Shown here: one piece after another, positions 1,603-26,343 of the stretch
How the letters are laid out: every line of letters begins with the position of its first letter
Position numbering within the stretch: the stretch's first letter is position 1
Source: Dyella sp.
GTDB taxonomy: Bacteria > Pseudomonadota > Gammaproteobacteria > Xanthomonadales > Rhodanobacteraceae
Length of the DNA: 64,000 nucleotides
Assembly (NCBI RefSeq): GCF_035277725.1
Contig: NZ_DATEJY010000222.1
Coordinates: 3,337 to 67,336, forward strand
Direction of reading: 5' to 3'
Position numbers and translations under genes: made by a program
The notes under the pieces: model-generated
What the model saw: only the letters and a program-made list of their open reading frames with translations
The model's database searches: none
Told to the model about the DNA's origin: nothing

Positions 1603-1774
1603 GCCGGCCTGCGCTGGCCTGGCGGCGCGGCCTGAATCTTTCTGCTCAAGGGGCGAGGAGTAACCAAGGCATGCGTGCCGACGTGCGACGACATGTAAAT
1701 CCGGCCAGCAGCCATGCCTTCCGGCGCTCCCTTTCCCGCACAGCAGCTGCCGCTGCGAGCTGCTAGGAAACTCT

Positions 1775-2602: not shown

Positions 2603-2789
2603 GGCGCGCCACACCTACATCCCTCGCCAGCAAGCGGCAGGAGAGGAAAGAACGGAACTGCCGCTGCCGACCGCGGTCGATATCCCAATCCCGAGCGTAC
2701 GCCACCGCGCAGCTTTTCCAGTCGCCCGGCGGGTACTTCGCAACGCTAGCTGATAAGCTTTGAATTCCTAAGAAGACGTACCCGCTTTG

Positions 2790-4142
2790 ATGAATCCCTT
2801 TTTCGGCTCGGTGTTCTGGTTACTGGTCACGCTAGGCGTGCTGGTGACCTTTCACGAATTCGGACACTACTGGGTCGCCCGCCGCTGCGGTGTGAAAGTG
2901 TTGCGCTTCTCGGTCGGCTTCGGCCGTGCCATCTGGAGGCGCATCGGCCGCGACGGCACTGAATACCAGATCGCCGCGATTCCACTCGGCGGCTACGTCA
3001 AGATGCTCGACGCGCGCGAGGGTGAGGTCGATCCTGCCGAACGCCATCAGGAGTTCACCGCGCAGCCGATCTGGAAACGCATCGCCATCGTCGCCGCCGG
3101 CCCGGGCTTCAATATCATTTTCACCATTGCCGCGTTCTGGCTGATGTTCGTCATGGGCCGCACGGACTACGCGCCGATCGTGACCGCCGCCCCGCAAAGC
3201 CTGGCCGCCGAGGCAGGCATCCATGAGGGCGATCGCCTGCTCACCGTTGGCGGCGAGCCGGTCACCACCTGGAGCGGTTCGTACGACGTCATCGCCAACG
3301 CGCTGCTTGGCCGCACGCCCCTGGCCGTCACCGTGCGCGGCACGGATGGCACGGAACGTTCGCTGGTTCTGCCGCTCAACCGCCTGCCGGCCGGCGAAGA
3401 CGTGGGGCAATACCTGGACAAGCTGGGCCTGGAACTGGCGCCGCCTCCACCGGTCGCCGCCACCGTCGAACCCGGCGATCCTGCCGCACTGGCCGGCTTG
3501 CAGGGTGGTGATCGCATCCTGCGCATCAACGGCACCGCGGTGAAGAACGATTTCAATGACATCGGCACGCTGGTGAAGGCCGCTGCCGCGAAATCGCCGC
3601 GCCTTTCGGTGGACGTCGAGCGTCATGGCAAACCGATGAACTTCATCGTCACGGCGCAGATGAAATCCGAAAAAGGCCAGCCGGTGCAGTGGATCATCGG
3701 CATCACCAGCCCGGCCGCCGAAGTCGCCATCCAGCATTACGGCCCGGCCAAGGCGATGGTTGAATCGCTCAGCCTCACGTGGCAGCGCACCACCGACACC
3801 TTCAGCATGGTCGGCAAGATGATTACCGGCGAGGCGTCGACCAAGAACATTTCAGGCGTCATCGGCATTGCGCAAGTCGCCAACGCGGCAGCGCAAATGG
3901 GGCTGGATCGCTTCCTGGAATTTCTCGGCCTGGTGTCACTGAGCCTGGCCATCATCAACCTGCTGCCCATTCCGGTCTTGGATGGCGGCCATCTGCTGTA
4001 TTACCTTATCGAGCTGATCAAAGGCAGCCCGGTCAGCGAACGGACCATGATCGCGGGCCAGTACGTGGGCATCGCCTTGCTGTTCACGCTGATGGGGTTG
4101 GCGTTCTACAACGACATCCATCGCATCATCCTGCCCTCGTGA
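2790..4142 (+). CDS. rseP: RIP zinc metalloprotease RseP (site-2 protease)
   Basis: HEFGHYW (HExxH) in the first TM helix, a central PDZ-like region and a C-terminal NLLPIPVLDGGH motif. The ATG at 2790 follows an in-frame TTG at 2787. Confidence 0.95.
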   Translation: MNPFFGSVFWLLVTLGVLVTFHEFGHYWVARRCGVKVLRFSVGFGRAIWRRIGRDGTEYQIAAIPLGGYVKMLDAREGEVDPAERHQEFTAQPIWKRIAIVAAGPGFNIIFTIAAFWLMFVMGRTDYAPIVTAAPQSLAAEAGIHEGDRLLTVGGEPVTTWSGSYDVIANALLGRTPLAVTVRGTDGTERSLVLPLNRLPAGEDVGQYLDKLGLELAPPPPVAATVEPGDPAALAGLQGGDRILRINGTAVKNDFNDIGTLVKAAAAKSPRLSVDVERHGKPMNFIVTAQMKSEKGQPVQWIIGITSPAAEVAIQHYGPAKAMVESLSLTWQRTTDTFSMVGKMITGEASTKNISGVIGIAQVANAAAQMGLDRFLEFLGLVSLSLAIINLLPIPVLDGGHLLYYLIELIKGSPVSERTMIAGQYVGIALLFTLMGLAFYNDIHRIILPS

Positions 4143-4362
4143 GACGGATGCGCGCCGCCTGCAACCTCATGGTTGAGTGCTGGCCGCGGTCATCCTATTG
4201 CGTGGCAAACCTCGCGCCCTGCGCGGTGACCGGTGTCTCTTTACCGGTGCTGCCAGCGCAAGTGGGGAAAACAACATGAGGCCGGGATGATGCCGGCTTT
4301 GGAAAAAATGCAGCGGGGCGGCCGCATGACCGCCCCGTCCGAATAACACAACGGAATCGACG

Positions 4363-6795
4363 ATGAAGCGTATCGCCGCCCTGATCCTGCTTGCCTCCCT
4401 GTCCACCAGCGCGTTCGCGCTGGACCCCTTCGTCGTTTCCGACATCCGCATCGAAGGCCTGAACCGCATCTCCGCCGGTACCGTATTCAACTACCTGCAG
4501 ATCAACAAGGGCGACCGGCTCACCTCCGAAGAAGCCCAACAGGCCATTCGCGCGCTGTACAACACCAAGTTCTTCAGCGACGTAGAGCTGGATCGCGACG
4601 GCAACATCCTGGTGATCAAGGTGACCGAGCGTCCGTCGATTGCCAAGCTGTCGATTCGCGGCAATAGCGACATCAAGACCGACGACTTGAAGAAGGGCCT
4701 GAAGGACATCGGCCTGTCCGAAGGCGAGACCTTCGACCGCCTCGCATTGGACCGCGTGCAGCAGGAACTGATCCGCCAGTACTACAACCGCGGCAAGTAC
4801 AACGTGTCGGTGATTCCGCACGTCACCACGCTTGACCGCAACCGCGTATCCATCGACATCGAAATCCGCGAAGGCAAGGTTGCCAAGGTCAAGGAAGTGA
4901 ACATCGTTGGCAACACGGCGTTCACCGACAAGGAAATCGAAGACAACTTCGAAACCGGTACGACCAACCTGCTCTCGTGGTATTCGAAGAACGACCAGTA
5001 CTCGCAGGACAAACTGTCGGGCGACTTGAAGAAACTGCAGTCCTACTACATGGATCGCGGCTACGCCGACTTCGGCATCGACTCCACCCAGGTCACCATT
5101 GCGCCGGACAAGCGTGCGATGTACATCGCCGCCGACGTGATCCAGGGCGACATCTACCACATCTCCGGCACGCACCTGCTCGGTCAGCTGATCCTGCCCG
5201 AAGACACGCTGCGCAGGCTGGTGTTCGTGAAAGATGGCGACCTGTTCAACCGCCGCGCCATCGAGGCAACCTCCGATTCGATCAAGGCACTGCTGGCCAA
5301 CATCGGTTACGCCTTCGCCAAGGTCAATTCGGTACCCAAGCTCGACAAAGACAAGAAGACTGTCGACGTGACCTGGTATATCCAGCCGGGTCCGCGCGTG
5401 TACGTGCGCCGCGTGATCTTCCAGGGCAATACCCGCACGGAAGACGACGTGCTGCGTCGTGAAATGCGCCAGCTCGAAGGCTCGTGGTACTCGCAGGCCG
5501 CGATCGACCGTTCGAAGATCCGCTTGCAGCAGCTGGGCTATTTCAAGACCGTCACCATCGACAAGCAGACCGTACCGGGCAGCGATGACGAAGTCGATCT
5601 GACGGCGAAGGTGGAAGAACAATCCGCCGGCAGCCTGACCTTCGGCGTGGGTTACTCGCAGTACTCGGGCATCATCCTGTCCAGCTCGGTATCGCAGAAG
5701 AACTTCCTCGGCACCGGCGACCAATTCAGCATCGGTGCGCAGCGCAGCGATTACCTCACGTCGATCAACGCGGGCTACTACAACCCGTATCTGACCGAGA
5801 ACGGCATCGGCATCGGCTACAACGCCACCTTCTCGAAGGCCGACTACAGCAGCCTGGGCAGCCAGTACGCGAGCTATTCGAACAGCACCAAATCATTCTC
5901 GACCACCATCGGCATTCCGATCACCGACTTCGACCGCCTGAGCGGCAGCCTCGGTATCGGCAGCACCAAGATCAACACCTATTACGGCTACACGCCGCAG
6001 GTGCTGATCGACTACATCAACGCGCTGGGCCACGAGACCATCCATACCTGGACCGGCTCGCTGAGCTGGATCCACGACACGCGCAACTCGTATTGGGCGC
6101 CCACACACGGCGGTCAGCTCACCGCGGGCGTGAACGTGGCACTGCCAGGCTCCACCGTGCAGTATTGGACCTTTAACGCCGAAGCCAACCATTACTGGCC
6201 GCTGTGGAAGGGTTTCGTGCTGTACCTGGATGGCAAGGTGGCCTACGGCGATACCTACGGAACGCAGAAATTCGAGAACACCACGGCTGACTACAATGCC
6301 GCCACCGGTGTCGGCTACAAGGCTGGCGACAAGGTCACCTTCCCGTTCTGGATGAACTTCTACGCGGGCGGTGTGACCGACCTGCGCGGCTTCCAGGACA
6401 ACACCCTCGGCCCGCGCGCTTGCGCCGGCGCGGCTACCGACGGTTCGCCCATCAAGCCCGCCGCCAACGGCTACTGCCAAGGCAGCCCCTATACCTATGC
6501 GCAGCCGATCGGCGGTGCGTTCAAGGTGCTGGGCACGGCCGAGATCTACCTGCCGCTGCCGTTCCTCAAGGACATCAACACCGCACGCGTGTCGTTGTTC
6601 ATGGACGTCGGCCAGGCCTATCAGAACGTCCAGAGCTTCAGCACGAAGACGCTGGATGCATCGGCCGGCATCTCGTTGCACTGGCAGGCACCGATCGGCC
6701 CGCTGATCATCAGCCTAGGCACGCCGATCCGCTCGCAGCCTGGCGACAGCCAGTACGAAGAACGCATCCAGTTCACCTTCGGCAGCCAGTTCTAA
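4363..6795 (+). CDS. bamA: outer membrane protein assembly factor BamA
   Basis: 810-aa ORF with signal peptide MKRIAALILLASLSTSAFA, POTRA-like N-terminal repeats and a beta-barrel ending in ...IQFTFGSQF. Position after rseP. Confidence 0.97.
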   Translation: MKRIAALILLASLSTSAFALDPFVVSDIRIEGLNRISAGTVFNYLQINKGDRLTSEEAQQAIRALYNTKFFSDVELDRDGNILVIKVTERPSIAKLSIRGNSDIKTDDLKKGLKDIGLSEGETFDRLALDRVQQELIRQYYNRGKYNVSVIPHVTTLDRNRVSIDIEIREGKVAKVKEVNIVGNTAFTDKEIEDNFETGTTNLLSWYSKNDQYSQDKLSGDLKKLQSYYMDRGYADFGIDSTQVTIAPDKRAMYIAADVIQGDIYHISGTHLLGQLILPEDTLRRLVFVKDGDLFNRRAIEATSDSIKALLANIGYAFAKVNSVPKLDKDKKTVDVTWYIQPGPRVYVRRVIFQGNTRTEDDVLRREMRQLEGSWYSQAAIDRSKIRLQQLGYFKTVTIDKQTVPGSDDEVDLTAKVEEQSAGSLTFGVGYSQYSGIILSSSVSQKNFLGTGDQFSIGAQRSDYLTSINAGYYNPYLTENGIGIGYNATFSKADYSSLGSQYASYSNSTKSFSTTIGIPITDFDRLSGSLGIGSTKINTYYGYTPQVLIDYINALGHETIHTWTGSLSWIHDTRNSYWAPTHGGQLTAGVNVALPGSTVQYWTFNAEANHYWPLWKGFVLYLDGKVAYGDTYGTQKFENTTADYNAATGVGYKAGDKVTFPFWMNFYAGGVTDLRGFQDNTLGPRACAGAATDGSPIKPAANGYCQGSPYTYAQPIGGAFKVLGTAEIYLPLPFLKDINTARVSLFMDVGQAYQNVQSFSTKTLDASAGISLHWQAPIGPLIISLGTPIRSQPGDSQYEERIQFTFGSQF

Positions 6796-6810
6796 TTGCC
6801 ATCACCTTAC

Positions 6811-6836
6811 GACGCCGCGGCCCGGTCCGCGGCGTC
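6811..6836 (+). terminator. GC-rich hairpin just after the bamA stop (possible terminator, no U-tract)
   Basis: Perfect 10-bp stem GACGCCGCGG / CCGCGGCGTC with loop CCCGGT, starting 15 nt after the bamA stop codon. No T-run follows. Confidence 0.4.
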
Positions 6837-6954
6837 GCCGTGTCCAGCCTTGCAAACACAGGCTCGCGCACACCGGTCTACCGGATCCGATCGTTCCGCC
6901 ATCGTTCCGGGGCATTCCCAAGTTCGACGCTCTGCTCGTGAAGTGAGGGGAACG

Positions 6955-9024
6955 ATGCAAGCTGTCCGGTCAATGAGAACTAACTCATCCACCCTGTCAC
7001 GCAGGCAGCGGACGCTCGTCTGGGGCGCGGCCGTGGCGCTGCTTTTGCTGTTCACCATGCAGGTGTTCAACGTGGTGCGGCAGGAATCCCTCAGCTGGGA
7101 CGAAGGCGACCACATCTTTGCCGGCTATATGGGATGGAAAACCCACGACTTCGGGTTCAATCCCGAGCATCCGCCGCTGATGAAAGCCGTGGCGACGATC
7201 CCGCTGCTGGGATTGCCGTTGAAGGTATCCACCGACCAGCATCGTTTCTTCAAGGACGAGGCCTATCTTGATGGCCGCGCCTTGTTGTTCGACAACGCGC
7301 CGTTCAATGCGCAGTCCTTGACCTTGCGTGTGCGGCTGGCGGCCGGCGTGGTGGCGCTGTCGCTGGCCGTACTGGTGTTTGCGGCAGCATGGGAAATGTT
7401 CGGCGCCGGCGCGGCGTTGCTGGCATTGGCGCTGCTGTGTTTCGAACCGAACGTGCTGGCACACAGTGCATTGGTCACCACCGATATCGGCGTTTCATGC
7501 TTCCTGCTGGCTGCGGTGTACGCGTTCTACCGTTACAACAAGGCTCCCTCGTTGTGGCGCTTGTTGATCGCTGGTGTGGCGGCCGGACTCGCCTTGGCGA
7601 CGAAACACTCCGCCATCCTGCTGGTGCCGATGCTTGCTGCACTCGCCGTCGTGGAGCTTATCTGCCCGGCCGATCGCAACACCCCGCTCGATGCTCCTTT
7701 ACCCAAGCGTATCCTGCGATTGGGAGGTGCCCTGATCGCCATCGGTGCCGCCGGCCTGCTGGTGCTGTGGAGTTTCTACGGTTTTCGCTATGCCGCGCGC
7801 CCGGATGGACTCCAGCTTGCTCCGTCACTGATCGAGTATGTGAAACCGCTGCGCCCCCTTGAGGCAAAGGGCATCCTGCTGCTGGCGCGCTGGCATGTGC
7901 TGCCGGAATCCTATCTTTATGGCCTGACGGACGTGCGCTCGATGGCCAACGGCATGCCGAGTTTCATCTTCGGCAAGGTCTACGACCACGGCGTCTGGTT
8001 CTACTTCCCGGCCATATTGGCGATCAAGTCCACGCTCGGCTTTCTCGGCATGCTGCTGCTTGCGATCGCCGCACTCGTTGCGCGTAGCTGGCCACGCCCG
8101 CGCGAGGCGCTGTACCTGTTGCTGCCGGCACTGATCTATCTATGGGTGGCGATGCAGTCCAGCTTGAATATCGGCGCCCGCCACATCATGCCGGTGTATG
8201 TCTTCCTGCTGGTGTTTGCGGCCGGCGGTTGCTGGGCCTTGATGCAACGCGGCGGAGCCTGGCAACGCAAATCCACCGTGCTGATAGCCTTCTTGCTGGC
8301 CGCACACGTGACCTCCTCGGTGCGCGCCTATCCCAACTACATGGCCTATTCGAACGAACTGTGGGGAGGTCCGGCGCAAACCTATAAGGTGCTCACGGAT
8401 TCAAGCGCGGATTGGGCGCAACAACTGCTGGCCGTGAAACAGTATCTGGACAGCCGCGGCATCAAGAACTGCTGGTTCGCCTACTTTGCACAGCCTTTCA
8501 TAAGGCCTGCGGACTACGGCATTCCATGCAAGCTGCTGCCGACACCCGATGGCATCTGGCAGAAGATGGATACCGACGTGCCACCCGTCATCCACGGCCC
8601 TGTACTGATCAGCGCGGGCGACTGGACGTGGTACGAGATGGGCCCCAGCTCGCCCAATCCTTACGAGTCGTTTCAACACCTGCAACCCGTGGCCAACATC
8701 CAGGATGGCGTGCTGGTTTACGAAGGCGACTTCCACGTGCCGCTGGCTTCGGCGCTGGGCCATATCCAGCGTTCCAGCAACCTGCTGGAGCAGAAAAAAA
8801 CCGCCGAAGCCGTAGCCGAAGCACGCACTGTCGTGGCTATCGCGCCCGATGCCGTGCAAGCCCAACTGGCGCTCGGCGATGCGCTGGCCGCGCAGGCTGA
8901 CAGCGGCGGCGCCCACGCCGCTTATCGCGCCGCATTGAGTTTGGCCGCCCAGATGGCGCCAGGCGCGCGGGAAACCTGGAGCGAACGCATCCGGCAGAAG
9001 CTGCAGACGGTGACCCCGCCGTGA
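6955..9024 (+). CDS. GT-C fold glycosyltransferase (family 39 / PMT_2 / ArnT-like) with C-terminal TPR-like tail
   Basis: Start chosen at ATG 6955, preceded by GAGGGG. There are many TM segments and an acidic first-loop motif SWDEGDHIFAGY...NPEHPPLMK typical of PMT/ArnT-like enzymes. The C-terminal ~90 aa is Ala-rich and helical-repeat-like (AEAVAEARTVVAIAPDAVQAQLALGDALAAQ...). Confidence 0.8.
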   Translation: MQAVRSMRTNSSTLSRRQRTLVWGAAVALLLLFTMQVFNVVRQESLSWDEGDHIFAGYMGWKTHDFGFNPEHPPLMKAVATIPLLGLPLKVSTDQHRFFKDEAYLDGRALLFDNAPFNAQSLTLRVRLAAGVVALSLAVLVFAAAWEMFGAGAALLALALLCFEPNVLAHSALVTTDIGVSCFLLAAVYAFYRYNKAPSLWRLLIAGVAAGLALATKHSAILLVPMLAALAVVELICPADRNTPLDAPLPKRILRLGGALIAIGAAGLLVLWSFYGFRYAARPDGLQLAPSLIEYVKPLRPLEAKGILLLARWHVLPESYLYGLTDVRSMANGMPSFIFGKVYDHGVWFYFPAILAIKSTLGFLGMLLLAIAALVARSWPRPREALYLLLPALIYLWVAMQSSLNIGARHIMPVYVFLLVFAAGGCWALMQRGGAWQRKSTVLIAFLLAAHVTSSVRAYPNYMAYSNELWGGPAQTYKVLTDSSADWAQQLLAVKQYLDSRGIKNCWFAYFAQPFIRPADYGIPCKLLPTPDGIWQKMDTDVPPVIHGPVLISAGDWTWYEMGPSSPNPYESFQHLQPVANIQDGVLVYEGDFHVPLASALGHIQRSSNLLEQKKTAEAVAEARTVVAIAPDAVQAQLALGDALAAQADSGGAHAAYRAALSLAAQMAPGARETWSERIRQKLQTVTPP

Positions 9025-9077
9025 ACGCGGCAGGGGCCAACCCTCTACAATGCCGCCGCTGCCTTGGAGTTTGAGGA

Positions 9078-10106
9078 ATGAATCCAATCCGTTACAGCGT
9101 TGCCCAGCTTGCCGAACGTTTCGCCCTGGAGTTCCAGGGTGACGGGGCACGCATCATCGATGGTGTCGGCACACTTGCCGCTGCAGGTCCGACCCAGCTG
9201 AGCTTTCTTTCCAACAGCAAATACGCCGCGCAACTGGCCACCACGCGCGCCGGCGTGGTGGTGGTGAATCGCGATGCCGCGGAAAGTTGTCCCACCGCGA
9301 CCCTGATCGCCCGCGATCCGTACGTGGCCTACGCGCACATAGCCGCCTTGTTCGAGCGCCTGCCGGCCGCGACGCCGGGCGTGCATCCCACGGCGGTGAT
9401 CGCACCGAGTGCGCGCGTCAGTCCGTCGGCAAGCATCGGCCCCTGCTGCGTCATCGAAGACGGCGCCGTGGTCGAAGACGGCGCCATCCTCGGCCCGCAT
9501 TGCATCATCGGTCCCGAATGCACGGTCGGTGCGCAGTCGCGGCTGGTCGCGCGCGTCACCTTGGTAATCCGCGTGACGCTGGGCAAGCGCGTGCTGGCGC
9601 ATCCGGGCGCGGTGATCGGCTCGGACGGCTTCGGCCTGGCGTTCGATCGCGACCACTGGGTGAAGCTGCCGCAGCTGGGCGGCGTGCGCATCGGCGACGA
9701 CTGTGAAATCGGCGCCAACACCACCATCGATCGTGGTGCGCTGGACGACACCGTGCTGGAAGAAGACGTGCGCCTGGACAACCAGATCCAGATCGCCCAC
9801 AACGTCTACATCGGTGCACACACCGCCATGGCCGGCTGCGCCGCCGTGGCCGGCAGTGCGAAAATCGGCCGTTATTGCATGATCGGCGGCAATGCCGGCG
9901 TGCTCGGCCATCTCGAATTGGCCGACCGGGTTACCATTACGGCCAAGAGCCTGGTGACTCATTCGATTCGGGAGGCTGGCGAGTATTCCTCCGGGGTGCC
10001 GCTGCAGGAGAACCGACAGTGGCGCCGCAATGCTGCGCGCTTCAAGCACCTGGACGAATACGCGCGCCGATTGTCGGCGCTGGAAAAGGATAAGAACGAT
10101 GATTAA
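9078..10106 (+). CDS. lpxD: UDP-3-O-acylglucosamine N-acyltransferase
   Basis: 342-aa ORF with hexapeptide (left-handed beta-helix) repeats, followed by fabZ-lpxA-lpxB in canonical order. Confidence 0.96.
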   Translation: MNPIRYSVAQLAERFALEFQGDGARIIDGVGTLAAAGPTQLSFLSNSKYAAQLATTRAGVVVVNRDAAESCPTATLIARDPYVAYAHIAALFERLPAATPGVHPTAVIAPSARVSPSASIGPCCVIEDGAVVEDGAILGPHCIIGPECTVGAQSRLVARVTLVIRVTLGKRVLAHPGAVIGSDGFGLAFDRDHWVKLPQLGGVRIGDDCEIGANTTIDRGALDDTVLEEDVRLDNQIQIAHNVYIGAHTAMAGCAAVAGSAKIGRYCMIGGNAGVLGHLELADRVTITAKSLVTHSIREAGEYSSGVPLQENRQWRRNAARFKHLDEYARRLSALEKDKNDD

Positions 10107-10736: not shown

Positions 10737-11506
10737 TCCACCCCACCGCGCAGATCGATCCCTCAGCCGTCATCGGCAACAACGTAAGCATCGGCGCCTT
10801 TACCGTCATCGGCGCCGAGGTGGAAATCGGCGACAACACGGTGATCGGCCCGCACGTGGTGATCCAGGGCCCCACCAAAATTGGCCGCGACAATCGCATC
10901 GCGCAATTCGCCTCGCTCGGCGGCGATCCGCAGGACATGAAGTACGGCGGCGAACGCACCGAACTGGTCATCGGCGATCGCAACCTGATCCGCGAATTCG
11001 TCACCATCAATCGGGGCACCAGCGAAGGCGGCGGCGTCACGCGCGTTGGCAACGACAACTGGCTGCTGGCCTACGTGCACGTGGCGCACGATTGCAAGGT
11101 CGGCAACCACACCATCTTCTCCAACTATTCGGCGCTGGCCGGCCATGTGGAAGTGGGCGACTGGACGGTTTTCGCCGGCTATTCCGGTGCGCACCAGTTC
11201 TGCAAGATCGGCGAGCACGCCTTCATCGCCATGGGCTGCCTGCTCGGCGCCGACGTGCCGCCGTTCCTGATGATGGCCAACGACCAGGCGGGCCGTCCGC
11301 GCGGACTCAACACCACCGGCCTCAAGCGCCGCGGCTTCGAGCCGGAACGCATCACCGCGATCAAGCGCGCCTACCGCACGCTCTACACCTCGGGCCTGTC
11401 GCTGGCCGAGGCGCGCGAGCAACTCGCCACGCAAGCCAAGGAAAGCGAAGACGTGCGGGCGATGCTGGCATTTCTGGAACGCAGCGAACGCGGGTTGGCG
11501 CGCTGA
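10733..11506 (+). CDS. lpxA: acyl-ACP--UDP-N-acetylglucosamine O-acyltransferase
   Basis: [15 protein letters not shown]... with hexapeptide repeats. The ATG overlaps the fabZ stop as ATGA. Confidence 0.96.
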
Positions 11507-11567
11507 CAATATGCGCCCCCGCATATGGTTAGATCAGGCACGGGCTTTTTGCTTTTGAGGCATTGCC

Positions 11568-12791
11568 ATGCCCACTGACGCCAACGCTCCGCTGATCGCC
11601 CTCATCGCCGGCGAAGACTCCGGCGATCAACTCGGTGCCGATCTGATCACCGCCTTGCGGCGCCACTATCCCGATGCACGCTTCGTCGGCATCGGCGGTC
11701 GCCGCATGCAGAAGCACGGTTTCGAATCGTGGTACGACATCCGCGAACTGTCTCTGTTCGGTTTTGCGGAGGTAATCAGCCATCTGCCGCGGCTGTTGAA
11801 ACTGCGCAAAGAACTGATCACACGCCTGCTCGCGGCCAGGCCCGCGATCGTGGTCGGCATCGACGCTCCCGATTTCAACCTCGGTCTCGAACGCCGCTTG
11901 AAGCAAGCGGGCCTGCGCACCGTGCATTACGTCAGCCCGTCGATCTGGGCCTGGCGCGAAAAGCGGGCGGACAAGATCGGCCACAGCGTGCATCGCGTGC
12001 TGTGCCTATTCCCGATGGAGCCACCGATCTACGCGCGCCATGGCATCGATGCGCGTTTCGTCGGCCATCCATTGGCCGATCGCTTTCCGCTCGTATCCGA
12101 TCGCGTACCGGCACGCCGCACGTTACAGCTGCCGCTCGACGCCCCTGTGTTGGCGCTGCTGCCTGGCAGTCGCCATTCCGAGCTGGAACGCATGGGCGCC
12201 ATCTTTTTGGATACCGCACGCCGCGTGGCCACCGCCATGCCCGGCTTGCGCGTGGTAATTCCCGCCGCGAATTCGCGTGCACTCGCCACACTCAAGGCCA
12301 TGCTTGCACACGGGCCGCATGATGATGCCTCGCCCATCCTGATCGACGGCCATGCCCACGAAGCAATGCTCGCTGCCGACGTCGTGTTGCTGGCATCCGG
12401 TACCGCCACGCTGGAAGCGATGCTCGCCAAGCGTCCGATGGTGGTGGGCTATCGCGTATCGCCATTGAGCTATCGCATCGCGCGCCTGTTCAACATGCTC
12501 AAGACCGACGTCTACGCACTGCCCAACATCCTTGCCCGCGCCTGCGGCATGGGCAAGGACGCGCTGCTGGCACCGGAACTGATGCAGGACGACTTCACCG
12601 CGGAGAAGCTCACGCACGCCACGCTGCAATTGTTCCGCGATAGCGAGCGGCGCGGCGCCATCGTTGCCGCCTTCGAGCAATTGCATGAAGCCTTGCGCGG
12701 TCATCTGCCCGGCCACGCCGGCGACCATGCGGCGGCGGCGATCATTGAATTGATCGAGCAACCAAGCTCCCTCCCCCGGGAAGAGGGTTAG
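11568..12791 (+). CDS. lpxB: lipid-A-disaccharide synthase
   Basis: 407-aa ORF (...LIALIAGEDSGDQLGADLI...VHYVSPSIWAWREKR...) collinear with the LpxB family. Position after lpxA. Confidence 0.95.
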   Translation: MPTDANAPLIALIAGEDSGDQLGADLITALRRHYPDARFVGIGGRRMQKHGFESWYDIRELSLFGFAEVISHLPRLLKLRKELITRLLAARPAIVVGIDAPDFNLGLERRLKQAGLRTVHYVSPSIWAWREKRADKIGHSVHRVLCLFPMEPPIYARHGIDARFVGHPLADRFPLVSDRVPARRTLQLPLDAPVLALLPGSRHSELERMGAIFLDTARRVATAMPGLRVVIPAANSRALATLKAMLAHGPHDDASPILIDGHAHEAMLAADVVLLASGTATLEAMLAKRPMVVGYRVSPLSYRIARLFNMLKTDVYALPNILARACGMGKDALLAPELMQDDFTAEKLTHATLQLFRDSERRGAIVAAFEQLHEALRGHLPGHAGDHAAAAIIELIEQPSSLPREEG

Positions 12792-13968: not shown

Positions 13969-14134
13969 GATGGCGTCAGTCGAACACCGCCAATAGTTAA
14001 AACGGGTGCCCGCAAGCTTGCCCGTCGCCGCTTTTACGAATGTCCGGGCGACGACTTACGATTCGGGACTGCTGTCAATGCTTGCCCGTACCCGGCCGGC
14101 TCGCTAGGCTGAGCTATTGCTTCGCGTGCGAGCC

Positions 14135-17100
14135 ATGTCCGTCCGTTTCGCTCATCTGCATCTGCACAGCGAATATTCGCTGGTCGACTCGACCATCCGC
14201 ATCAAGGCGCTGGTGGCTGCCTGCGTGCAGGCCGGTGCGCCCGCTGTCGCGCTCACCGATGAGTGCAACATGTTCGCCCTGGTGAAGTTCTACAAGGCGT
14301 GCAGCGCGGCCGGCATCAAGCCGATCGGCGGCTGCGACTTGTGGATAAGCGCTCCGGACGATCCGCGCCCCTGGCGCATGACCGTGCTGTGCCAGAACCG
14401 CGACGGCTATCTCAACCTTTCCCGCCTCGTCTCGCGCGCCTGGCGCGAAGGCCAGCAAGGCGGCCGTGCGCTGGTCGACGCCACGTGGCTCACGCCGGCT
14501 GCGACAGACGGCTTGATCGTGCTGCTCGGGCGCGAAAGCGAAGCGGCCCGCATGGCCGTCAACCAGGGCACGGATACGGCGGCACCGCGTCTGCAAACGC
14601 TGCTGCAATTGTTTCCCGATCGCCTGTACCTGGAACTCACCCGCTGCGGCCGCGAGGGCGAAGAAGCGTGGAACAACGCCGCGCTCACCCTGGCCACCGC
14701 ACTCGATCTGCCGGTGATCGCCAGCAACGACGTGCGCTTCCTGAAGCAGGACGACTTTGAAGCGCACGAAGCACGCGTGTGCATTCACCAAGGCCGCGTT
14801 CTTGCCGATCCCAAGCGCCCGCGCGACTACAGCGACCAGCAATACCTGAAAACGCCCGAGCAGATGGCCGAGTTGTTTGCGGACATCCCCGAAGCGCTGG
14901 AAAACACGGTCGAACTGGCCAAGCGCTGCAACCTGGAACTCTCGTTCGGCACCTACTACCTGCCGAACTTCCCGGTACCGGAAGGCCACGACCTCGACAG
15001 CTACATCCGCGAAACCGCGCGCGAAGGTTTGAAAGAACGCCTCGCCCACGCGCCGTTGGCAGCCGGCTACACGCTCGCCGATTACGAAGCACGCCTGGAA
15101 CGCGAGCTGGACGTGATCATCAAGATGGGTTTTCCCGGTTACTTCCTGATCGTGGCGGACTTCATCAACTGGGGTAAGCAGAACGGCATTCCGGTCGGCC
15201 CGGGCCGCGGTTCGGGTGCAGGCTCGCTGGTGGCGTGGGTGCTGAAGATCACCGATCTCGATCCGCTGCAGTTCAACCTGCTGTTCGAGCGTTTCTTGAA
15301 TCCAGAGCGCGTGTCGATGCCGGACTTCGACATCGACTTCTGCATGGATCGCCGCGACGAGGTGATCGACTACGTCGCGCGCAAATACGGCCGCGACCAC
15401 GTCAGCCAGATCATCACCTACGGCTCGATGGCTGCCAAGGCGGTGCTGCGCGACTCCGGCCGCGTGCTCGGCATGGGCTACAACGCGGTCGACAAGATCG
15501 CCAAGCTGATTCCGGCGCGCCCGCTCGACCTCACGTTGTCATGCGCACTTGGCCGCTCGGAAAAAGCGCAGAAAGAACCCGACCGCGTGGTCAAGGAATT
15601 CTGCGAACTCTACGAACAGGACGAAGAAGCCAAGACGCTGATCGACCTGGCGCTGAAACTGGAAAGCCTCACGCGCAACGCCGGCAAGCACGCCGGTGGC
15701 GTGGTGATCGGGCCCAAACCGCTCACCGAATTCGCACCGCTGTACTGCGAACCGGGCGGCGCTGGCGTCGTTACGCAATACGACAAGGACGACGTCGAAG
15801 CCGTCGGCCTGGTGAAGTTCGACTTCCTCGGCCTGCGCACGCTCACCATCATCGATTGGGCGGTGAAGGCGATCAATGCGCGCCGCGCGCAAAGCGGCGA
15901 AGAACCGCTGGACATCGCCGCGCTGCCGCTCGATGACGTCCCCACCTACGAGTTGTTGAAACGCGCGCAGACCGTCGCCGTGTTCCAGCTCGAATCCTCC
16001 GGCATGCAGCGCATGCTCAAGGATGCGAAGCCGGACCGCTTCGAAGACATCATCGCGCTGGTGGCGTTGTATCGCCCCGGCCCGATGGACCTGATCCCCA
16101 GCTTCGTCGCGCGTAAACATGGTCGCGAAGAAGTGATCTATCCCGATCCGCGCGTCGAGCCGATCCTGAAAGAGACCTACGGCATCATGGTCTACCAGGA
16201 GCAGGTGATGCAGATGGCGCAGATCGTCGGCGGCTACTCGCTCGGCGGCGCCGACCTGTTGCGCCGCGCGATGGGCAAGAAGAAAGTCGAGGAAATGGCC
16301 AAGGAGCGCGCCAAGTTCCGCGAAGGCGCCGCCAAGGACGGGCTGACTGGCGAGAAAGCCGATGCCATCTTCGACGACATGGAAAAGTTCGCCGGCTACG
16401 GCTTCAACAAGTCGCATGCCGCCGCCTATGCCGTGGTGTCGTACCAGACTGCATGGCTGAAGGCGCACTACCCCGCCGAATTCATGGCCGCGACCATTTC
16501 GTCGGACATGGACAACACCGACAAGGTGGTGATCTTCCTCGACGAATCGCGCGCGATCGGCTTGAAGATCCTGCCGCCGGACGTGAACGCATCGGAGTTC
16601 ATGTTTGAGGCCGTCGAACCGAGGGTCATTCGCTATGGCCTCGGCGCCATCAAGGGCGTCGGCCAGGGTGCTTGCGAAGCCATTGCCGAGGAACGCAAGA
16701 AAGGCGGCCCGTACAAGGATCTGGCCGACTTCTGCCGCCGCGTTGATCCCAGCAAGCTCAATCGCCGCGTGCTGGAAGCACTGATCTACTCCGGCTCGCT
16801 GGATGCCCTGGCCCCCACCCGCGCCAGCCTGATGCTGCAGTTGCCGGATGCGATCAAGGCGGCCGAACAGCATCTGCGCGATCGCCAGTCCGGCCAGAAC
16901 GACATGTTCGGTGCCATGGTCGGCGCCGTCACCCCCGTCGTGGAGATCAACCTGCCCACCGCGCCCGAATGGCCGCTGGAGCAGAAACTGCAAGGCGAGC
17001 GCGACACGCTCGGCCACTACCTGTCCGGCCACCCCACCGATCCCTGGCGCGAGGAACTGGCCCAGCTCTCCACCTGCCCGCTCGGCGAGATCGCCGACCG

Positions 17101-17671
17101 CTACCAGCCCCCGCGCCCGCGCAAGAACGACGGCGACGACAACCGCTTCCGCCGCGGCCCCGATACCCCCTGGACCGTCGCCGGCATGGTGGTGGCCGTG
17201 CGCAAGCGCGGCGACAGCGACGCCTTCGTGCGCCTGGAAGACAGCACCGGCAGCATCGAGGTGAGCTTCTTCGGCGAGCTGTACCAGCAAGCCGCCCCGC
17301 TGCTCACCCGCGACGAGCTGATCGTGGTCGAAGGCGGCCTGCGCATCGACGAATTTTCCGGCGGCGGTTTCCAGGTACGCGCCCGCAGCGCCATGTCCAT
17401 GGCCGACGCCTGCCGCCGCTACGCGCGCCTGCTGCGCGTCAAGGTCAACGGCATCGGCCCCGACTTCATCACCCAGTTCCGCCAGGCCCTCGCCGGCCAT
17501 CGCGGCGGCAATGCGAGCGTGCTGCTAAGCGGCTACCACAACGCCGTGGCGCAGGCGGATTTCGAATTCGGGCAGGAATGGAAGGTGCACGCCATCCCCG
17601 AGCTGCTGCGCACCGTGCGGGGGATGCCTGGGGTGCTGGGCGCGGGTGTGCGGATCATCAAAGCCGACTAA
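14135..17671 (+). CDS. dnaE: DNA polymerase III alpha subunit
   Basis: Starts MSVRFAHLHLHSEYSLVDS (PHP domain). About 1178 aa, collinear with DnaE. Position after rnhB. Confidence 0.98.
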   Translation: MSVRFAHLHLHSEYSLVDSTIRIKALVAACVQAGAPAVALTDECNMFALVKFYKACSAAGIKPIGGCDLWISAPDDPRPWRMTVLCQNRDGYLNLSRLVSRAWREGQQGGRALVDATWLTPAATDGLIVLLGRESEAARMAVNQGTDTAAPRLQTLLQLFPDRLYLELTRCGREGEEAWNNAALTLATALDLPVIASNDVRFLKQDDFEAHEARVCIHQGRVLADPKRPRDYSDQQYLKTPEQMAELFADIPEALENTVELAKRCNLELSFGTYYLPNFPVPEGHDLDSYIRETAREGLKERLAHAPLAAGYTLADYEARLERELDVIIKMGFPGYFLIVADFINWGKQNGIPVGPGRGSGAGSLVAWVLKITDLDPLQFNLLFERFLNPERVSMPDFDIDFCMDRRDEVIDYVARKYGRDHVSQIITYGSMAAKAVLRDSGRVLGMGYNAVDKIAKLIPARPLDLTLSCALGRSEKAQKEPDRVVKEFCELYEQDEEAKTLIDLALKLESLTRNAGKHAGGVVIGPKPLTEFAPLYCEPGGAGVVTQYDKDDVEAVGLVKFDFLGLRTLTIIDWAVKAINARRAQSGEEPLDIAALPLDDVPTYELLKRAQTVAVFQLESSGMQRMLKDAKPDRFEDIIALVALYRPGPMDLIPSFVARKHGREEVIYPDPRVEPILKETYGIMVYQEQVMQMAQIVGGYSLGGADLLRRAMGKKKVEEMAKERAKFREGAAKDGLTGEKADAIFDDMEKFAGYGFNKSHAAAYAVVSYQTAWLKAHYPAEFMAATISSDMDNTDKVVIFLDESRAIGLKILPPDVNASEFMFEAVEPRVIRYGLGAIKGVGQGACEAIAEERKKGGPYKDLADFCRRVDPSKLNRRVLEALIYSGSLDALAPTRASLMLQLPDAIKAAEQHLRDRQSGQNDMFGAMVGAVTPVVEINLPTAPEWPLEQKLQGERDTLGHYLSGHPTDPWREELAQLSTCPLGEIADRYQPPRPRKNDGDDNRFRRGPDTPWTVAGMVVAVRKRGDSDAFVRLEDSTGSIEVSFFGELYQQAAPLLTRDELIVVEGGLRIDEFSGGGFQVRARSAMSMADACRRYARLLRVKVNGIGPDFITQFRQALAGHRGGNASVLLSGYHNAVAQADFEFGQEWKVHAIPELLRTVRGMPGVLGAGVRIIKAD

Positions 17672-17796
17672 GCCCTTGGACACCATGACGTTGATGGTGA
17701 CGCTGGCCGACCTTAAGCTGGTTTTTAACGAGTCCGCACTCCTCCATATCCCGGCGAACGCCGGAGCCCAGTGTCTTTGCTTTTGAGGCAACCAAA

Positions 17797-17816
17797 GTTG
17801 GGGCTTTCGCCCCAAC
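17797..17816. terminator. palindromic hairpin between convergent dnaE and the Ivy-like gene
   Basis: GTTGGGGC-TTTC-GCCCCAAC, an 8-bp stem. On the minus strand it is followed by TTTGGTTG. It lies 8 nt beyond the stop of the minus-strand gene. Confidence 0.45.
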
Positions 17817-17823
17817 CGGGAAA

Positions 17824-18294
17824 CTACATGGATTCGGGCAGATAACCGGTAAACCGGTTTTTGATCGCTGCCGGCAGTATCGAGTAATCATCGACGTTGC
17901 CAAACCACCGCGTAGAAACGCGATGGTCCTGTCGCTCAAAAAAGCCAACCCACAACCGTGGCTTGTTCAAATCAATAACGACCATGGCAAAGGCTGCGGG
18001 ACAGTTATGCGGCATGCACTGATGGATAACGAGGAAATCACCCTGCTGCTCGATTTTGTCTTCCACGCCGTAGCTGGCGAGCGCTTTCCGGTCCGCGGGC
18101 GACAACAGGCCATGCAGCGCGGCCTGGATGGACGGCTGATCCAGAAAACCACCCTTTTTTCCGTTCGTATAGACCGAAGGATATTTCCCTACCCAGGATA
18201 AAAGCGCCGCCTTGTCCCAGGTCTGGGCACTGTCGGCTGCATAAAGCGAAGCCGGCATACACAGCGCCAACATCAGTGTAAGCATCATTCTCAT
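17824..18294 (-). CDS. secreted Ivy-like (inhibitor of vertebrate lysozyme family) protein
   Basis: Start taken at MRMMLTLMLALCMPASLYA/ADSAQ (Sec signal peptide). Contains FLVIHQ-CMPHNC-PAAFAMVVI, collinear with the E. coli Ivy inhibitory loop YQVMSA-CKPHDC-GSQRIAVMW. 156 aa. Confidence 0.7.
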   Translation of the reverse strand: MRMMLTLMLALCMPASLYAADSAQTWDKAALLSWVGKYPSVYTNGKKGGFLDQPSIQAALHGLLSPADRKALASYGVEDKIEQQGDFLVIHQCMPHNCPAAFAMVVIDLNKPRLWVGFFERQDHRVSTRWFGNVDDYSILPAAIKNRFTGYLPESM

Positions 18295-18299
18295 CGATA

Positions 18300-18716
18300 T
18301 CACCTGTGATTGATCTGCAGCGCGGCCATAGGGTGGGAGCCATCGTTTTTCAGCGCTTTTTCGCAGGCACAAATGGATTTGGAATAGCCTGCTCCCGTGC
18401 CGAACGATTTATCGACGCCAGCGAGTTTGGTCTTGCAGATGTCCAGATAACAGGTGCCGCACTGGATATTTTTTGCCGCATCGGTCATGTCATCGTGACT
18501 GAAATGAATGCCGGCCGGGCTGTTTTTGTTGACCAGGTCGACCGCCCCTTTCGTAAGCTGCATTAGCCCTGTTGCGGTGGATCCTCCGTTGACGACTTCC
18601 GGGTCAAAATTCGTTTCCTTCCATGCCAGACAGATCACGAATTCATCGGAAAAGATTTTCGATCTGTTGTTGTCCTTGACCAGCTTTACCATCTGCTCGT
18701 AACTGAGCCCGCTCAT
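18300..18716 (-). CDS. small SLT-domain (lytic transglycosylase / lysozyme-like) protein without signal peptide
   Basis: ATG at 18716 is preceded by AAGGAGAG. Motifs LAWKETNFDP (catalytic Glu) and STATGLMQLT are typical of the SLT family. The N-terminus MSGLSYEQMVKLVKDNNRSK is hydrophilic. The stop lies 5 nt before the next gene's start. Confidence 0.75.
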   Translation of the reverse strand: MSGLSYEQMVKLVKDNNRSKIFSDEFVICLAWKETNFDPEVVNGGSTATGLMQLTKGAVDLVNKNSPAGIHFSHDDMTDAAKNIQCGTCYLDICKTKLAGVDKSFGTGAGYSKSICACEKALKNDGSHPMAALQINHR

Positions 18717-19004
18717 CCCACTCTCCTTAAGCGATATCCAAGAAACATCCATAGAAATGGGCGCCGTTCATGGCGCCCCGCAGATCATGCGTCAGGCGTC
18801 GAAACCCTGGCAACATCTTCACGTCACAGCCCTCGAAGCTCCGGGCTGCCCCGGCACTTCGCCCAGCACCGCGGGTTTATCAGCGACCGTTGCCGCCTCG
18901 GAGGCTGAGGGACAAAGCGCTTTCCCAGCCCCCATACGCCCCCGTTCCCGCCCCGTCACGCACCCCGGGTATACTGCCCCGCTTCTGTGCCACGTCAGTG
19001 ACCG

Positions 19005-19961
19005 ATGAACCCGAATTTCCTCGATTTCGAACAACCGATTGCCGAGCTGGAGGCCAAGATCGAGGAGCTGCGGCATGCCAGCTCCGGCCAAGCGTTCAAC
19101 ATCGACGAGGAAGTCGCCCGGCTGCGCGAGAAGCTCAAGCTGAAGACGGCGGATATCTTCCGCACCCTCACGCCCTGGCAGGTGACCCAGCTGTCGCGCC
19201 ACCCCGCGCGTCCCTACACGCTCGATTACATCGGCGTGATGTGCGAGGAATTCCACGAACTGGCCGGCGATCGTGCGTATGCCGACGATGCCGCCATCGT
19301 GGGCGGCCTGGGGCGCATCAACGGACGTTCGGTGATGATCATCGGTCATCAGAAAGCGCGTGATACCAAGGGCAAGGTGCGCCGCAACTTCGGCATGCCG
19401 CGACCGGAGGGTTATCGCAAGGCCCTTCGCCTGATGAAGATGGCTGAACGTTTCAACCTTCCGCTACTGACACTGATCGATACGCCCGGCGCCTATCCGG
19501 GTGTGGGCGCCGAAGAGCGCGGACAGAGCGAAGCCATCGCGCGCAACCTGCTGGAAATGGCCGAACTGAAAGTGCCGATCATCTGCACGGTGATCGGTGA
19601 AGGCGGCTCCGGCGGCGCGTTGGCGATCGGCGTGGGCGACAGCACGATCATGCTGCAATACTCGACCTATTCCGTGATTTCGCCCGAAGGTTGCGCCTCG
19701 ATTCTCTGGAAGAGCGCCGACAAGGCGAAGGATGCCGCTGAAGCCTTGGGCTTGATCGCACCACGCCTGCTGGAGCTCGGCCTGATCGACAAGGTGGTGC
19801 GCGAACCGCTAGGCGGTGCCCATCGCAATCCCCATTCGATGGCCGTACGCCTGAAAGCCGTGCTGCTCAACGAACTGGACCGGCTCGAAGGCATTCCCGC
19901 GCCGGAATTGCTCGAACAGCGTTATCGCCGCCTGCGCGATTACGGCGCCTATAACGAATAG
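19005..19961 (+). CDS. accA: acetyl-CoA carboxylase carboxyltransferase alpha subunit
   Basis: 318-aa [26 protein letters not shown]...[13 protein letters not shown]... collinear with AccA. Confidence 0.97.
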
Positions 19962-20360: not shown

Positions 20361-20438
20361 GTAGGTTGGGGTGAGGCGCAGCCGAACCCCAACATGGCGT
20401 GCAGCGTCCGGAACGTTGGGGTTCGCACCCCAACCTAC
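20361..20438. repeat. GTAG-bounded REP pair
   Basis: GTAGGTTGGGGTGAGGCGCAGCCGAACCCCAACAT...AACGTTGGGGTTCGCACCCCAACCTAC, two head-to-head palindromic units. Confidence 0.85.
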
Positions 20439-20505
20439 GTGGCCGTTGCCGATCACGCCCCTTTGCTGAAGAATCCCTCCGGGGTTCCAGACAAGCGAAG
20501 CTTCC

Positions 20506-25742: not shown

Positions 25743-26000
25743 ATGGCCAAGCCCACTTCCGCCCCTGCTGAAACGACCTCGGTCGCCGACTTCGAGCATT
25801 CGCTCGACGAACTCGAACAACTGGTGGCGCGCATGGAAGGGGGCGAAATGAGCCTGGACGAATCGCTCAGCGCCTTCGAACGCGGCATCGGCCTTTATCG
25901 CCACTGCCAGCAGGCGCTCGACCAGGCCGAACTGCGCGTGCGGCTGCTGCTCGATCCGGACGCGCCAGAAAAAGCCGAGCCGTTCACGCCCGAAACCTGA
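25743..26000 (+). CDS. xseB: exodeoxyribonuclease VII small subunit
   Basis: [70 protein letters not shown]... is collinear with E. coli XseB. An in-frame TTG at 25734 is an alternative start. Confidence 0.92.
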
Positions 26001-26003
26001 GCC

Positions 26004-26077
26004 GCAGGTTGGGATGCGAACCCCAACATTCCTTTCCTCGTCGACGTCGAAATGTTGGGGTTCGCACCCCAACCTAC
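26004..26077. repeat. GTAG-type REP pair (first copy)
   Basis: GCAGGTTGGGATGCGAACCCCAACAT-(24 nt)-ATGTTGGGGTTCGCACCCCAACCTAC, immediately after the xseB stop. Confidence 0.85.
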
Positions 26078-26081
26078 GGCT

Positions 26082-26263
26082 CTGAAACGACCCCGGTCGC
26101 CGACTTCGAACATTCGCTGGACGAACTCGAACAGCTGGTGGCGCGAGATGAGCCTGGACGAATCGCTCAGCGCCTTCGGACGCGGCATTGGCCTTTAGCA
26201 GGCGCTCGACCAGGCCGAACTGCGCGTGTGGCCGTTGCTCGATCCAAACGCACCGAACACGGC
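26082..26263 (+). pseudogene. decayed tandem duplicate of xseB
   Basis: Nucleotide-level copy of 25768-26000 that starts inside the gene with no start codon. It carries a 14-nt deletion (GCGCGCATGGAAGGGGGCGAAATGAGC becomes GCGCGAGATGAGC), a 12-nt deletion creating TAG (GGCCTTTATCGCCACTGCCAGCAGG becomes GGCCTTTAGCAGG) and a truncated 3' end. Confidence 0.8.
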
Positions 26264-26337
26264 GTAGGTTGGGGTGCGAACCCCAACATCCCTGTTCTCA
26301 TCGACATCGAAATGTTGGGGTTCGCACCCCAACCTAC
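26264..26337. repeat. GTAG-type REP pair (second copy)
   Basis: GTAGGTTGGGGTGCGAACCCCAACAT-(24 nt)-ATGTTGGGGTTCGCACCCCAACCTAC. Confidence 0.85.
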
Positions 26338-26343
26338 ATGCGG

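Follow-up and report, generated by a model that had tools for sequence, protein, structure and literature searches.

A 64,000-nt stretch of the genome of Dyella sp. (contig NZ_DATEJY010000222.1; hereafter the 64-kb window) carries a two-gene islet on its minus strand, lodged between dnaE and accA. The first gene (gene 1, 18300-18716, minus strand) codes for a 138-aa protein that appears to be a leaderless, free-standing SLT module, and the second (gene 2, 17824-18294, minus strand) for a 156-aa protein of predicted Ivy fold that is probably secreted and is a putative immunity protein or inhibitor. The left boundary of the islet is dnaE (14117-17671, plus strand), an open reading frame (ORF) of 1184 aa whose ortholog at locus L005 contains PHP, DNA_pol3_alpha and related Pfam domains, while the right boundary is accA (19005-19961, plus strand), an ORF of 318 aa whose L005 ortholog contains the ACCA and Carboxyl_trans Pfam domains. 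The gap between the two, from 17671 to 19005, measures 1333 bp, in agreement with the roughly 1.3 kb and the gene coordinates given in the preliminary description of this DNA. A Shine-Dalgarno (SD) sequence of gene 1, AAGGAG, was read at 18723-18728 on the minus strand, separated by 6 nt (18722-18717) from the ATG. At the junction of the two genes (18295-18305, minus strand), the TGA of gene 1 (18302-18300) is followed by a 5-nt spacer (18299-18295) and by the ATG of gene 2 at 18294, and the SD-like AGGTGA (18305-18300) overlaps the gene 1 stop. Translational coupling from gene 1 to gene 2 is plausible, because this overlapping AGGTGA could act as the ribosome-binding site of gene 2. Called genes at the other loci of this two-gene cassette meet at an equally tight junction of about 5-12 nt or overlap. 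The lower GC content noticed previously was borne out as well, with 0.52-0.56 in the islet against 0.62-0.72 in the flanks, and the GC content at third codon positions (GC3) of the cassette (0.62-0.65) is foreign to the genome; the values for dnaE, accA and the remaining genes of the lpx cluster that were called upstream are 0.76-0.86.

Gene 1 matched the Pfam SLT family (PF01464) over residues 23-127 with E=2e-10 and 40.6 bits, well above the gathering cut-off of 21.3, and searches of NCBIfam and of the sequences in the Protein Data Bank (PDB) likewise pointed to Slt70 and MltC. Both motifs singled out in the preliminary description are present, namely WKETNFDP (W-K-E34-T) and ATGLMQLT (G50-L-M-Q53), and the putative catalytic Glu34, encoded by the codon at 18615-18617 on the minus strand, aligns with the region of the catalytic Glu of MltC. 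Across 37 homologs, E34 in its W-K-E-S/T context, the GLMQ segment (including G50, M52 and Q53), C29, C118 and H137 are invariant, and C86 is nearly so. An AlphaFold2 (AF2) model built from these 37 homologs reached a mean confidence (pLDDT) of 93.4, and Foldseek placed Slt70 (1qte), Pseudomonas aeruginosa Slt (5ohu), MltC (4c5f) and MltE (2y8p) at the top, all with probability 1.0 and query template-modelling scores (TMq) of 0.5-0.6. The modelled fold is goose-lysozyme-like and alpha-helical, and from profile and model together gene 1 is predicted to be a family-1 lytic-transglycosylase domain and nothing else. The earlier label of an SLT-type muramidase is thus right in its first half, since the match to SLT exceeds the cut-off and the catalytic Glu is in place, while the word muramidase is imprecise, as fold and motifs point to a lytic transglycosylase. 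The similarity to Phage_lysozyme2 was weak and below threshold (E=0.036). The N-terminus is hydrophilic and carries no signal peptide, as had been described together with the length, position and SD sequence of the gene. The protein contains six cysteines, and the family keeps C29, C86, C118 and the C-terminal H137; these conserved residues could form a disulfide network after delivery into an oxidising periplasm, or else a metal site.

Gene 2 begins with what looks like a Sec-type signal peptide, MRMMLTLMLALCMPASLYA (residues 1-19, cleaved before AD; 18238-18294, minus strand), read from the sequence and called heuristically, and the protein is accordingly predicted to be periplasmic. This signal, the distance of 5 nt from gene 1 and the segment FLVIHQCMPHNCPAAFAMVVI were all found as first reported. 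By the same heuristic, a strongly hydrophobic N-terminal segment occurs in 91% of 115 gene 2 family members, compared with 4% of the free-standing gene 1 homologs, and the two products are predicted to be split between compartments throughout the family. The assignment of gene 2 to Ivy is marginal from its sequence alone. With the local Pfam model (PF08816.16) gene 2 reached 13.4 bits (E=0.088) where 21 are required, NCBIfam Ivy gave E=0.044, and among 17 relatives the local model reported 12 at E<1, with 0.0013 as the best value and none at the cut-off. The newer model PF08816.18, for which precomputed results were consulted, recognised the 93%-identical ortholog and most relatives at E<=1e-5. 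A single-sequence search of the PDB sequences with gene 2 returned chance matches to RpfC only; with the family profile, which was needed here, the best match among all PDB sequences was E. coli Ivy (1gpq/1xs0, E=0.009), and in the HMMER profile alignment the CxPHNC of the family falls on the CKPHDC of 1gpq. The AF2 model of gene 2 had a pLDDT of 80.5, and its top eight Foldseek matches were all Ivy structures (1uuz, 1gpq, 1xs0, 4ps6), with probabilities of 0.69-0.99, target template-modelling scores (TMt) of 0.44-0.56 and modest E-values of 0.06-0.3; the next match had a probability of 0.08. The counterpart of the inhibitory CKPHDC loop of Ivy is the segment C93-M-P-H96-N-C98-P99 (17998-18018, minus strand; CMPHNC being residues 93-98), which the model places between strands 87-93 and 101-108 and which is presumably bounded by a disulfide. 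The loop is invariant in a 17-sequence alignment, and among the 115 family members its two Cys residues are kept in 100% and 99%, Pro in 91% and His in 95%, while exactly CKPHDC is found in eight. Profile alignment and structural matches thus sustain the proposed collinearity of CMPHNC with CKPHDC, and gene 2 is best regarded, from sequence profiles and the model, as a distant member of the Ivy superfamily with an Ivy fold.

The distribution of the cassette was followed by context look-ups and by scanning 185,579 species genomes. Only 31 loci turned up among the species representatives, so that the family is rare, and its occurrence is patchy across phyla. Hosts of the free-standing enzyme are Dyella, the Betaproteobacteria Limnobacter, Rhodocyclus, Derxia, Uliginosibacterium, Rhizobacter and Eleftheria, and furthermore Methylomonas, Acetobacteraceae and one Terrimicrobiaceae metagenome-assembled genome (MAG). 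In all 24 non-redundant free-standing loci with downstream sequence, which span Gamma-, Beta- and Alphaproteobacteria as well as Verrucomicrobiota, the SLT gene is immediately followed on the same strand by the Ivy-like gene, so that the co-inheritance of the two genes as a unit, for which the preliminary description had proposed a co-occurrence check, was seen without exception and in the same order. No third conserved gene such as an adaptor, holin or spike emerged when the ORFs within 5 kb of the enzyme were clustered for 25 non-redundant loci. Some families that seemed to recur near the cassette proved to be antisense shadow ORFs. The neighbours vary from locus to locus: besides ordinary metabolic genes, they comprise a toxin-antitoxin/defence island, a transposase and a pair for two-partner secretion. 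As to plasmid carriage, the sole match was a 737-kb replicon of Eleftheria terrae, and no member of either family carried a functional name in the sources compared. On scaffold NZ_JHYG01000002.1 of Acidocella facilis, two copies of the cassette (L045 and L046) lie about 94 kb apart.

The pairwise identities of the two families are correlated (r=0.73 over 253 pairs), with the gene 2 family evolving faster (mean identity of 38%, compared with 59% for the enzyme). Within the Dyella clade, the islet occupies the same dnaE|accA junction in four genomes whose nucleotide divergence from the window is about 7-23%. Among them is the complete genome of D. acidisoli 4MZ03 (NZ_CP064031.1), in which the pair is 89% identical. 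The ratio of nonsynonymous to synonymous substitution rates (dN/dS) in this clade is 0.04-0.11 for the enzyme and 0.06-0.12 for its partner. Both genes are under purifying selection, and the Dyella islet is old and maintained. At one Dyella MAG locus (L019, 9157-9907), the distance from accA to the SLT gene exceeds that in the window by about 750 bases.

A profile search of 1.84 billion representative proteins with the enzyme module yielded 239 clusters at E<1e-10, and 56 at the stricter limit of E<1e-30; in many cases the full module stands at the C-terminal end of a longer protein. The architectures of the best 150 of these clusters were tallied by motif: the module stands after Rhs/YD repeats in 44, is preceded by other N-terminal extensions in 45 (several of them visibly Rhs fragments), is free-standing in 24, is only partial in 16, bears a C-terminal extension in 12 and is attached to eCIS_core (formerly DUF4157) in nine. 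The DUF4157 domain is a published marker of toxins of extracellular contractile injection systems (eCIS) and is typically located N-terminal to the toxin domain (PMC8213781). On Rhs and eCIS_core carriers the module matched at full length (profile positions 3-137). Pfam confirmed an Rhs scaffold (RHS_repeat, DUF6531, TEN_YD-shell, RHS core) for seven proteins (P0246, P0280, P0302, P0264, P0274, P0257 and P0328), eCIS_core scaffolds were found in P0200, P0203, P0207, P0216, L031 and L034, and one further module-bearing protein contains Peptidase_M15_4. In Nostoc/Komarekiella and in an Opitutae MAG, the genes for eCIS_core-SLT proteins adjoin those for the tube and the spike (Phage_base_V) of a contractile injection system. 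Directly after the Rhs-fused copies lie small overlapping genes whose products have signal peptides; neither the family hidden Markov model nor Pfam marked these downstream proteins as Ivy-like, and no partner gene was detected for the eCIS-fused copies. As our main new result, we propose that the enzyme module is a polymorphic-toxin domain, because Rhs and eCIS_core proteins carry it as their C-terminal tip and because it also occurs within or beside loci for a type VI secretion system (T6SS). In a Dongiaceae MAG (L041, 9866-11041), a gene preceded by two others of 1528 and 1721 aa extends the module by 200 aa on its C-terminal side; the added part resembles NlpC/P60 or CHAP by eye, with no Pfam match, and the product is possibly a bifunctional wall hydrolase.

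Two loci connect the module with the T6SS. At L014, a divergent, free-standing SLT/Ivy pair is located between a gene for a PpkA-like kinase and genes for a PP2C protein and an FHA protein with T6SS_FHA_C. The stretch between the PpkA-like and PppA/Fha genes also encodes, at 11348-12297 and 17634-18491, a leaderless 162-aa YkuD-like protein (21 bits, just under the Pfam cut-off) followed by a 148-aa exported protein and, at a greater distance, a Tox-GHH2 nuclease toxin (E=1e-18) and a HEAT-repeat protein, and by its gene content it seems to form a T6SS-type effector island. At L043, in a Longimicrobium MAG (Gemmatimonadota), the module lies in a divergent cluster of T6SS type, among VgrG-related, TssK, TssG, ClpB/ClpV-like and TagH-like genes (45-9597), whose matches each remain below the equivalog cut-offs and are coherent as a set; here the module protein has a 120-aa N-terminal domain of no known family and no Ivy-like gene follows. 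A T6SS is present in some Dyella species (PMC6653060).

Taken together, we consider it fairly probable that the islet is an orphan interbacterial effector-immunity cassette that was acquired horizontally, and transfer as a strict two-gene mobile unit is part of the explanation that fits best. Gene 1 would be a minimal toxin of 138 aa that stays harmless in the cytoplasm of the producer because it lacks a signal peptide. A contractile injection machine encoded elsewhere in the genome would export it, the likeliest carrier being a T6SS with the toxin as a small, non-covalent cargo of Hcp or VgrG, and in the periplasm of a neighbouring cell the enzyme would cleave peptidoglycan in its glycan strands. 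The product of gene 2, whose translation is probably coupled to that of gene 1, would be exported by Sec to the periplasm and shield the producer and its kin by blocking the enzyme there. Ivy reportedly inhibits lysozyme by a loop that enters the active-site cleft (1gpq, 1uuz), and the His-bearing, disulfide-constrained C-x-P-H-N/D-C loop of gene 2 may plug the cleft of the transglycosylase in the same way. We infer the enzymatic activity, the toxicity, the direct inhibition by the loop and the route of delivery; the two folds with their motifs, the compartment split, the co-inheritance, the purifying selection and the use of the module as toxin tip on Rhs and eCIS_core proteins are what the analysis itself brought out. 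A leaderless enzyme followed by a partner with a signal peptide is an arrangement expected of T6SS effector-immunity pairs, and it recurs across the family. The effector/immunity interpretation put forward initially gains strongly from the Rhs and eCIS toxin tips and from the T6SS loci L014 and L043. Linkage to a T6SS is missing from the window.

Several observations weigh against this interpretation. The 64-kb window is devoid of vgrG, hcp, PAAR, adaptor and other secretion genes, and the same holds within 10 kb of the pair at 23 of the 24 non-redundant loci, L014 being the exception. No MIX, FIX, WHIX or PAAR targeting motif was found in the gene 1 protein. The score of gene 2 against the local Pfam Ivy model, given above, lies under the cut-off. 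An Ivy protein is also not the universal antidote of the module, because the Rhs- and eCIS-fused copies are not followed by an Ivy-like gene. As for inhibition itself, E. coli Ivy was described as a weak inhibitor of lytic transglycosylases with undetectable binding (PMC10139938). The interpretation is favoured, in turn, by the P. aeruginosa Ivy proteins, which, according to the accounts of Clarke 2010 given in two later articles, inhibit MltB in vitro (PMC10139938; PMC3660660).

The strongest competitor, which we nonetheless regard as unlikely, holds that only defence is under selection, with the Ivy-like gene kept as orphan immunity against lysozyme-fold toxins or against lysozymes from the environment or a host, and the SLT gene carried along as an undelivered passenger. 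The lack of delivery genes nearby would be expected under this explanation, orphan immunity genes are generally known to be common in polymorphic-toxin systems, and canonical Ivy, whose fold gene 2 is predicted to share, inhibits c-type lysozyme. Against it, the SLT gene is by its dN/dS at least as constrained as the Ivy-like gene and retains its catalytic residues in 37 of 37 aligned homologs; none of the 24 non-redundant loci has lost it from the cassette, and it possesses a strong SD sequence and an apparent translational coupling to gene 2.

A little less probable still is the suggestion, raised in the preliminary description, of a self-contained autolysin with its control factor. The SLT protein would enter the periplasm of the cell that makes it along a non-classical route and remodel the wall of that cell, be it for turnover or to make space for an envelope machine, under the restraint of the Ivy-like protein, which fits a proposed housekeeping role of Ivy towards lytic transglycosylases. 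The position of the pair among genes of envelope biogenesis (the lpx cluster, bamA and yhdP) and its stable retention under purifying selection agree with this suggestion. Yet enzyme and inhibitor are predicted to reside in different compartments throughout the family, the distribution is very sparse and patchy (31 loci in about 185,000 species genomes), the GC3 is foreign and the neighbours are unrelated between loci. Moreover, specialised lytic transglycosylases are usually encoded with their machines, and the same module serves as the toxin tip of Rhs and eCIS_core proteins.

Delivery by something other than a T6SS would leave the effector-immunity pair as such intact, and we give it about the same small weight as the autolysin. 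Candidates would be outer-membrane vesicles, an eCIS set free when cells lyse, a two-partner secretion (TPS) system encoded nearby or another exporter. For 23 of 24 loci there is no T6SS linkage, eCIS_core proteins carry the module in phyla that generally lack a T6SS, and in one metagenomic lineage (L009-L012, 1-9368) the SLT/Ivy pair is located 630 bp downstream of a TPS pair that consists of a TpsA-like exoprotein of >3500 aa and a ShlB/TpsB transporter, which may be a coincidence or a delivery link. This adjacency is nevertheless limited to that lineage, the eCIS-fused copies come without an Ivy partner, the free-standing protein has neither an eCIS_core domain nor an N-terminal leader, and the only machinery found in linkage with a free-standing pair is of the T6SS type. 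Finally, a remnant of a phage lysis module, that is, an endolysin without its holin beside an unrelated periplasmic protein, is highly improbable, for although leaderless SLT-type enzymes are typical endolysins and the sub-threshold similarity to Phage_lysozyme2 points the same way, 50,697 phage genomes held no family member (the only matches, at 32-36% identity, were muramidases of cystoviruses), a single distant match at 38% came from 2.9 million viral contigs, no holin, spanin or other phage gene was seen at any cassette locus, and purifying selection acts on the two genes as a pair.

The combination of an SLT effector with an Ivy immunity protein, which had been thought undescribed, has a precedent in Stenotrophomonas in reports that date from 2026. 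In the vgrG2 operon of S. rhizophila CFBP13503, Tae2a/V2a is annotated as a Slt-like transglycosylase with 1QTE as its best structural match, and Tai2a, the corresponding immunity protein, bears the annotation 'Ivy c-type lysozyme inhibitor' (PMC13340143); in S. maltophilia S25 an Ivy-domain gene directly follows vgrG2 in the same arrangement (PMC13055248). As in the window, a peptidoglycan effector of lysozyme/Slt fold is accompanied by an adjacent exported protein annotated as Ivy, and Stenotrophomonas belongs to the same order-level group as the host of the window (Xanthomonadales/Lysobacterales). CQAHQC of Tai2a aligns with CMPHNC of gene 2 and VHWLG with TRWFG, and the two proteins score equally weakly against Pfam Ivy (14.7 and 13.4 bits). 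Tae2a, on the other hand, is a protein of about 50 kDa with a different Slt-like domain and an M23-type part, and Tai2a is a lipoprotein of 201 aa. When considered as a homolog of gene 1, Tae2a showed no detectable sequence relation, and Tai2a as a close relative of gene 2 gave a marginal match (E=0.044) that aligned only over the loop and the following strands. The Tai2a gene is placed upstream of its effector, with the pair right behind vgrG2, in contrast to the free-standing, minimal pair of the window without vgrG linkage.

With the Ivy family (E. coli Ivy/YkfE, P. aeruginosa Ivyp1 and Ivyp2; 1gpq, 1xs0, 1uuz, 4ps6), gene 2 shares a periplasmic location, a similar size, the fold and a Cys-x-Pro-His-Asp/Asn-Cys loop at the same position, all as far as prediction reaches. 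It differs from these structures in its low identity of 13-21% and in remaining under the local Pfam cut-off, and its family has in addition a conserved (V)STRWY motif and, near the N-terminus, a distinct region W..LLSWVGKYPS. Whereas classical ivy genes stand alone and are regulated by stress, gene 2 takes the second place in a fixed cassette, behind the gene of a dedicated enzyme.

Gene 1 also resembles the effectors of the T6SS pairs Tge1/Tse3-Tsi3, Tge2-Tgi2, VgrG3-TsiV3, Acinetobacter baumannii Tse4 and Chromobacterium violaceum CV_2665/CV_2666 in being a leaderless enzyme of lysozyme fold (PMC3792639; PMC13324451). These pairs are further alike in that the enzyme acts in the periplasm of the target cell and an adjacent gene encodes a periplasmic immunity protein. 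These effectors exceed gene 1 in size and, unlike it, have vgrG, hcp or PAAR genes linked to them, and Tse3, Tge2 and the structures of their immunity proteins were absent among the listed Foldseek matches of either model. To our knowledge, the immunity proteins of these glycoside-hydrolase effectors do not have an Ivy fold. The locus of C. violaceum consists of a PAAR gene, a gene for an SLT-domain effector and one for an immunity protein with a signal peptide (PMC13324451). With the Rhs and eCIS_core toxins, in turn, gene 1 shares the SLT module, which serves them as C-terminal toxin domain, and differs by the lack of an Rhs or eCIS_core carrier; the small exported proteins encoded directly downstream of the Rhs versions are not Ivy-like, unlike the partner in the window cassette. 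On present sequence comparisons, the window pair therefore appears to be an undescribed family within a known kind, that of peptidoglycan-glycosidase effector/immunity pairs and polymorphic-toxin modules.

Tentatively, and with the reservation that we hold it to be possible rather than likely, these data allow the idea that Ivy-fold proteins arose, and in environmental bacteria mainly serve, as immunity to bacterial lysozyme-fold toxins rather than as inhibitors of vertebrate lysozyme, the cassette being a co-evolved pair with a dedicated loop plug and possibly a carrier that requires neither a linked gene nor a targeting domain. If so, the C-x-P-H-x-C loop would be a dedicated plug for the active site of lytic transglycosylases. 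The control of lytic transglycosylases by Ivy has been debated since 2010, and a locked Ivy/lytic-transglycosylase cassette offers a natural pair for tests by binding assays, structure determination of the complex and loop mapping. Such tests could decide what purpose Ivy proteins serve and make it easier to understand the presence of Ivy homologs in free-living bacteria that do not encounter vertebrate lysozyme. How a minimal, unlinked toxin is delivered is a point of real interest as well, and in genomes without a T6SS the carrier of the free-standing toxin may represent an undescribed route. The module of 135 aa, compact and widely exchanged among Rhs, eCIS_core and free-standing forms, would be an addition to the toxin catalogue, and its case cautions that small cassettes between core genes are easily overlooked in annotation as 'hypothetical proteins'.

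The remainder of the window is made up of housekeeping genes, namely frr, uppS, cdsA, rseP, bamA, the lpx cluster, rnhB, dnaE and accA, along with tilS, yhdP, rng (RNase G), operons of ribosomal proteins, and genes for a resistance-nodulation-division (RND) pump and DAHP synthase. Genes of a T6SS, an eCIS or a phage were not found in it; the absence of T6SS and phage genes had been remarked at the outset. A search for direct or inverted repeats at the islet boundaries gave just short ones at chance level, and a promoter and terminator scan returned nothing above shuffled expectation. A hairpin, GGTTGGGGCGAAAGCCCCAAC, was read just 3' of gene 2 (17797-17817, minus strand); it is probably a terminator or an element of the repetitive extragenic palindrome (REP) type, and was not called in the terminator scan because it lacks a T-run. 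Its arms are the same as those of REP-like palindromes, GTTGGGGTTCGCACCCCAAC, that occur singly or as inverted pairs in intergenic positions of the window (20409-20441, 26002-26080 and 26262-26340). A tandem duplication of about 300 bp (25768-25966 and 26082-26254, 90-94% identity) covers a small gene that is XseB-like by eye, and each copy is followed by a REP-like pair.

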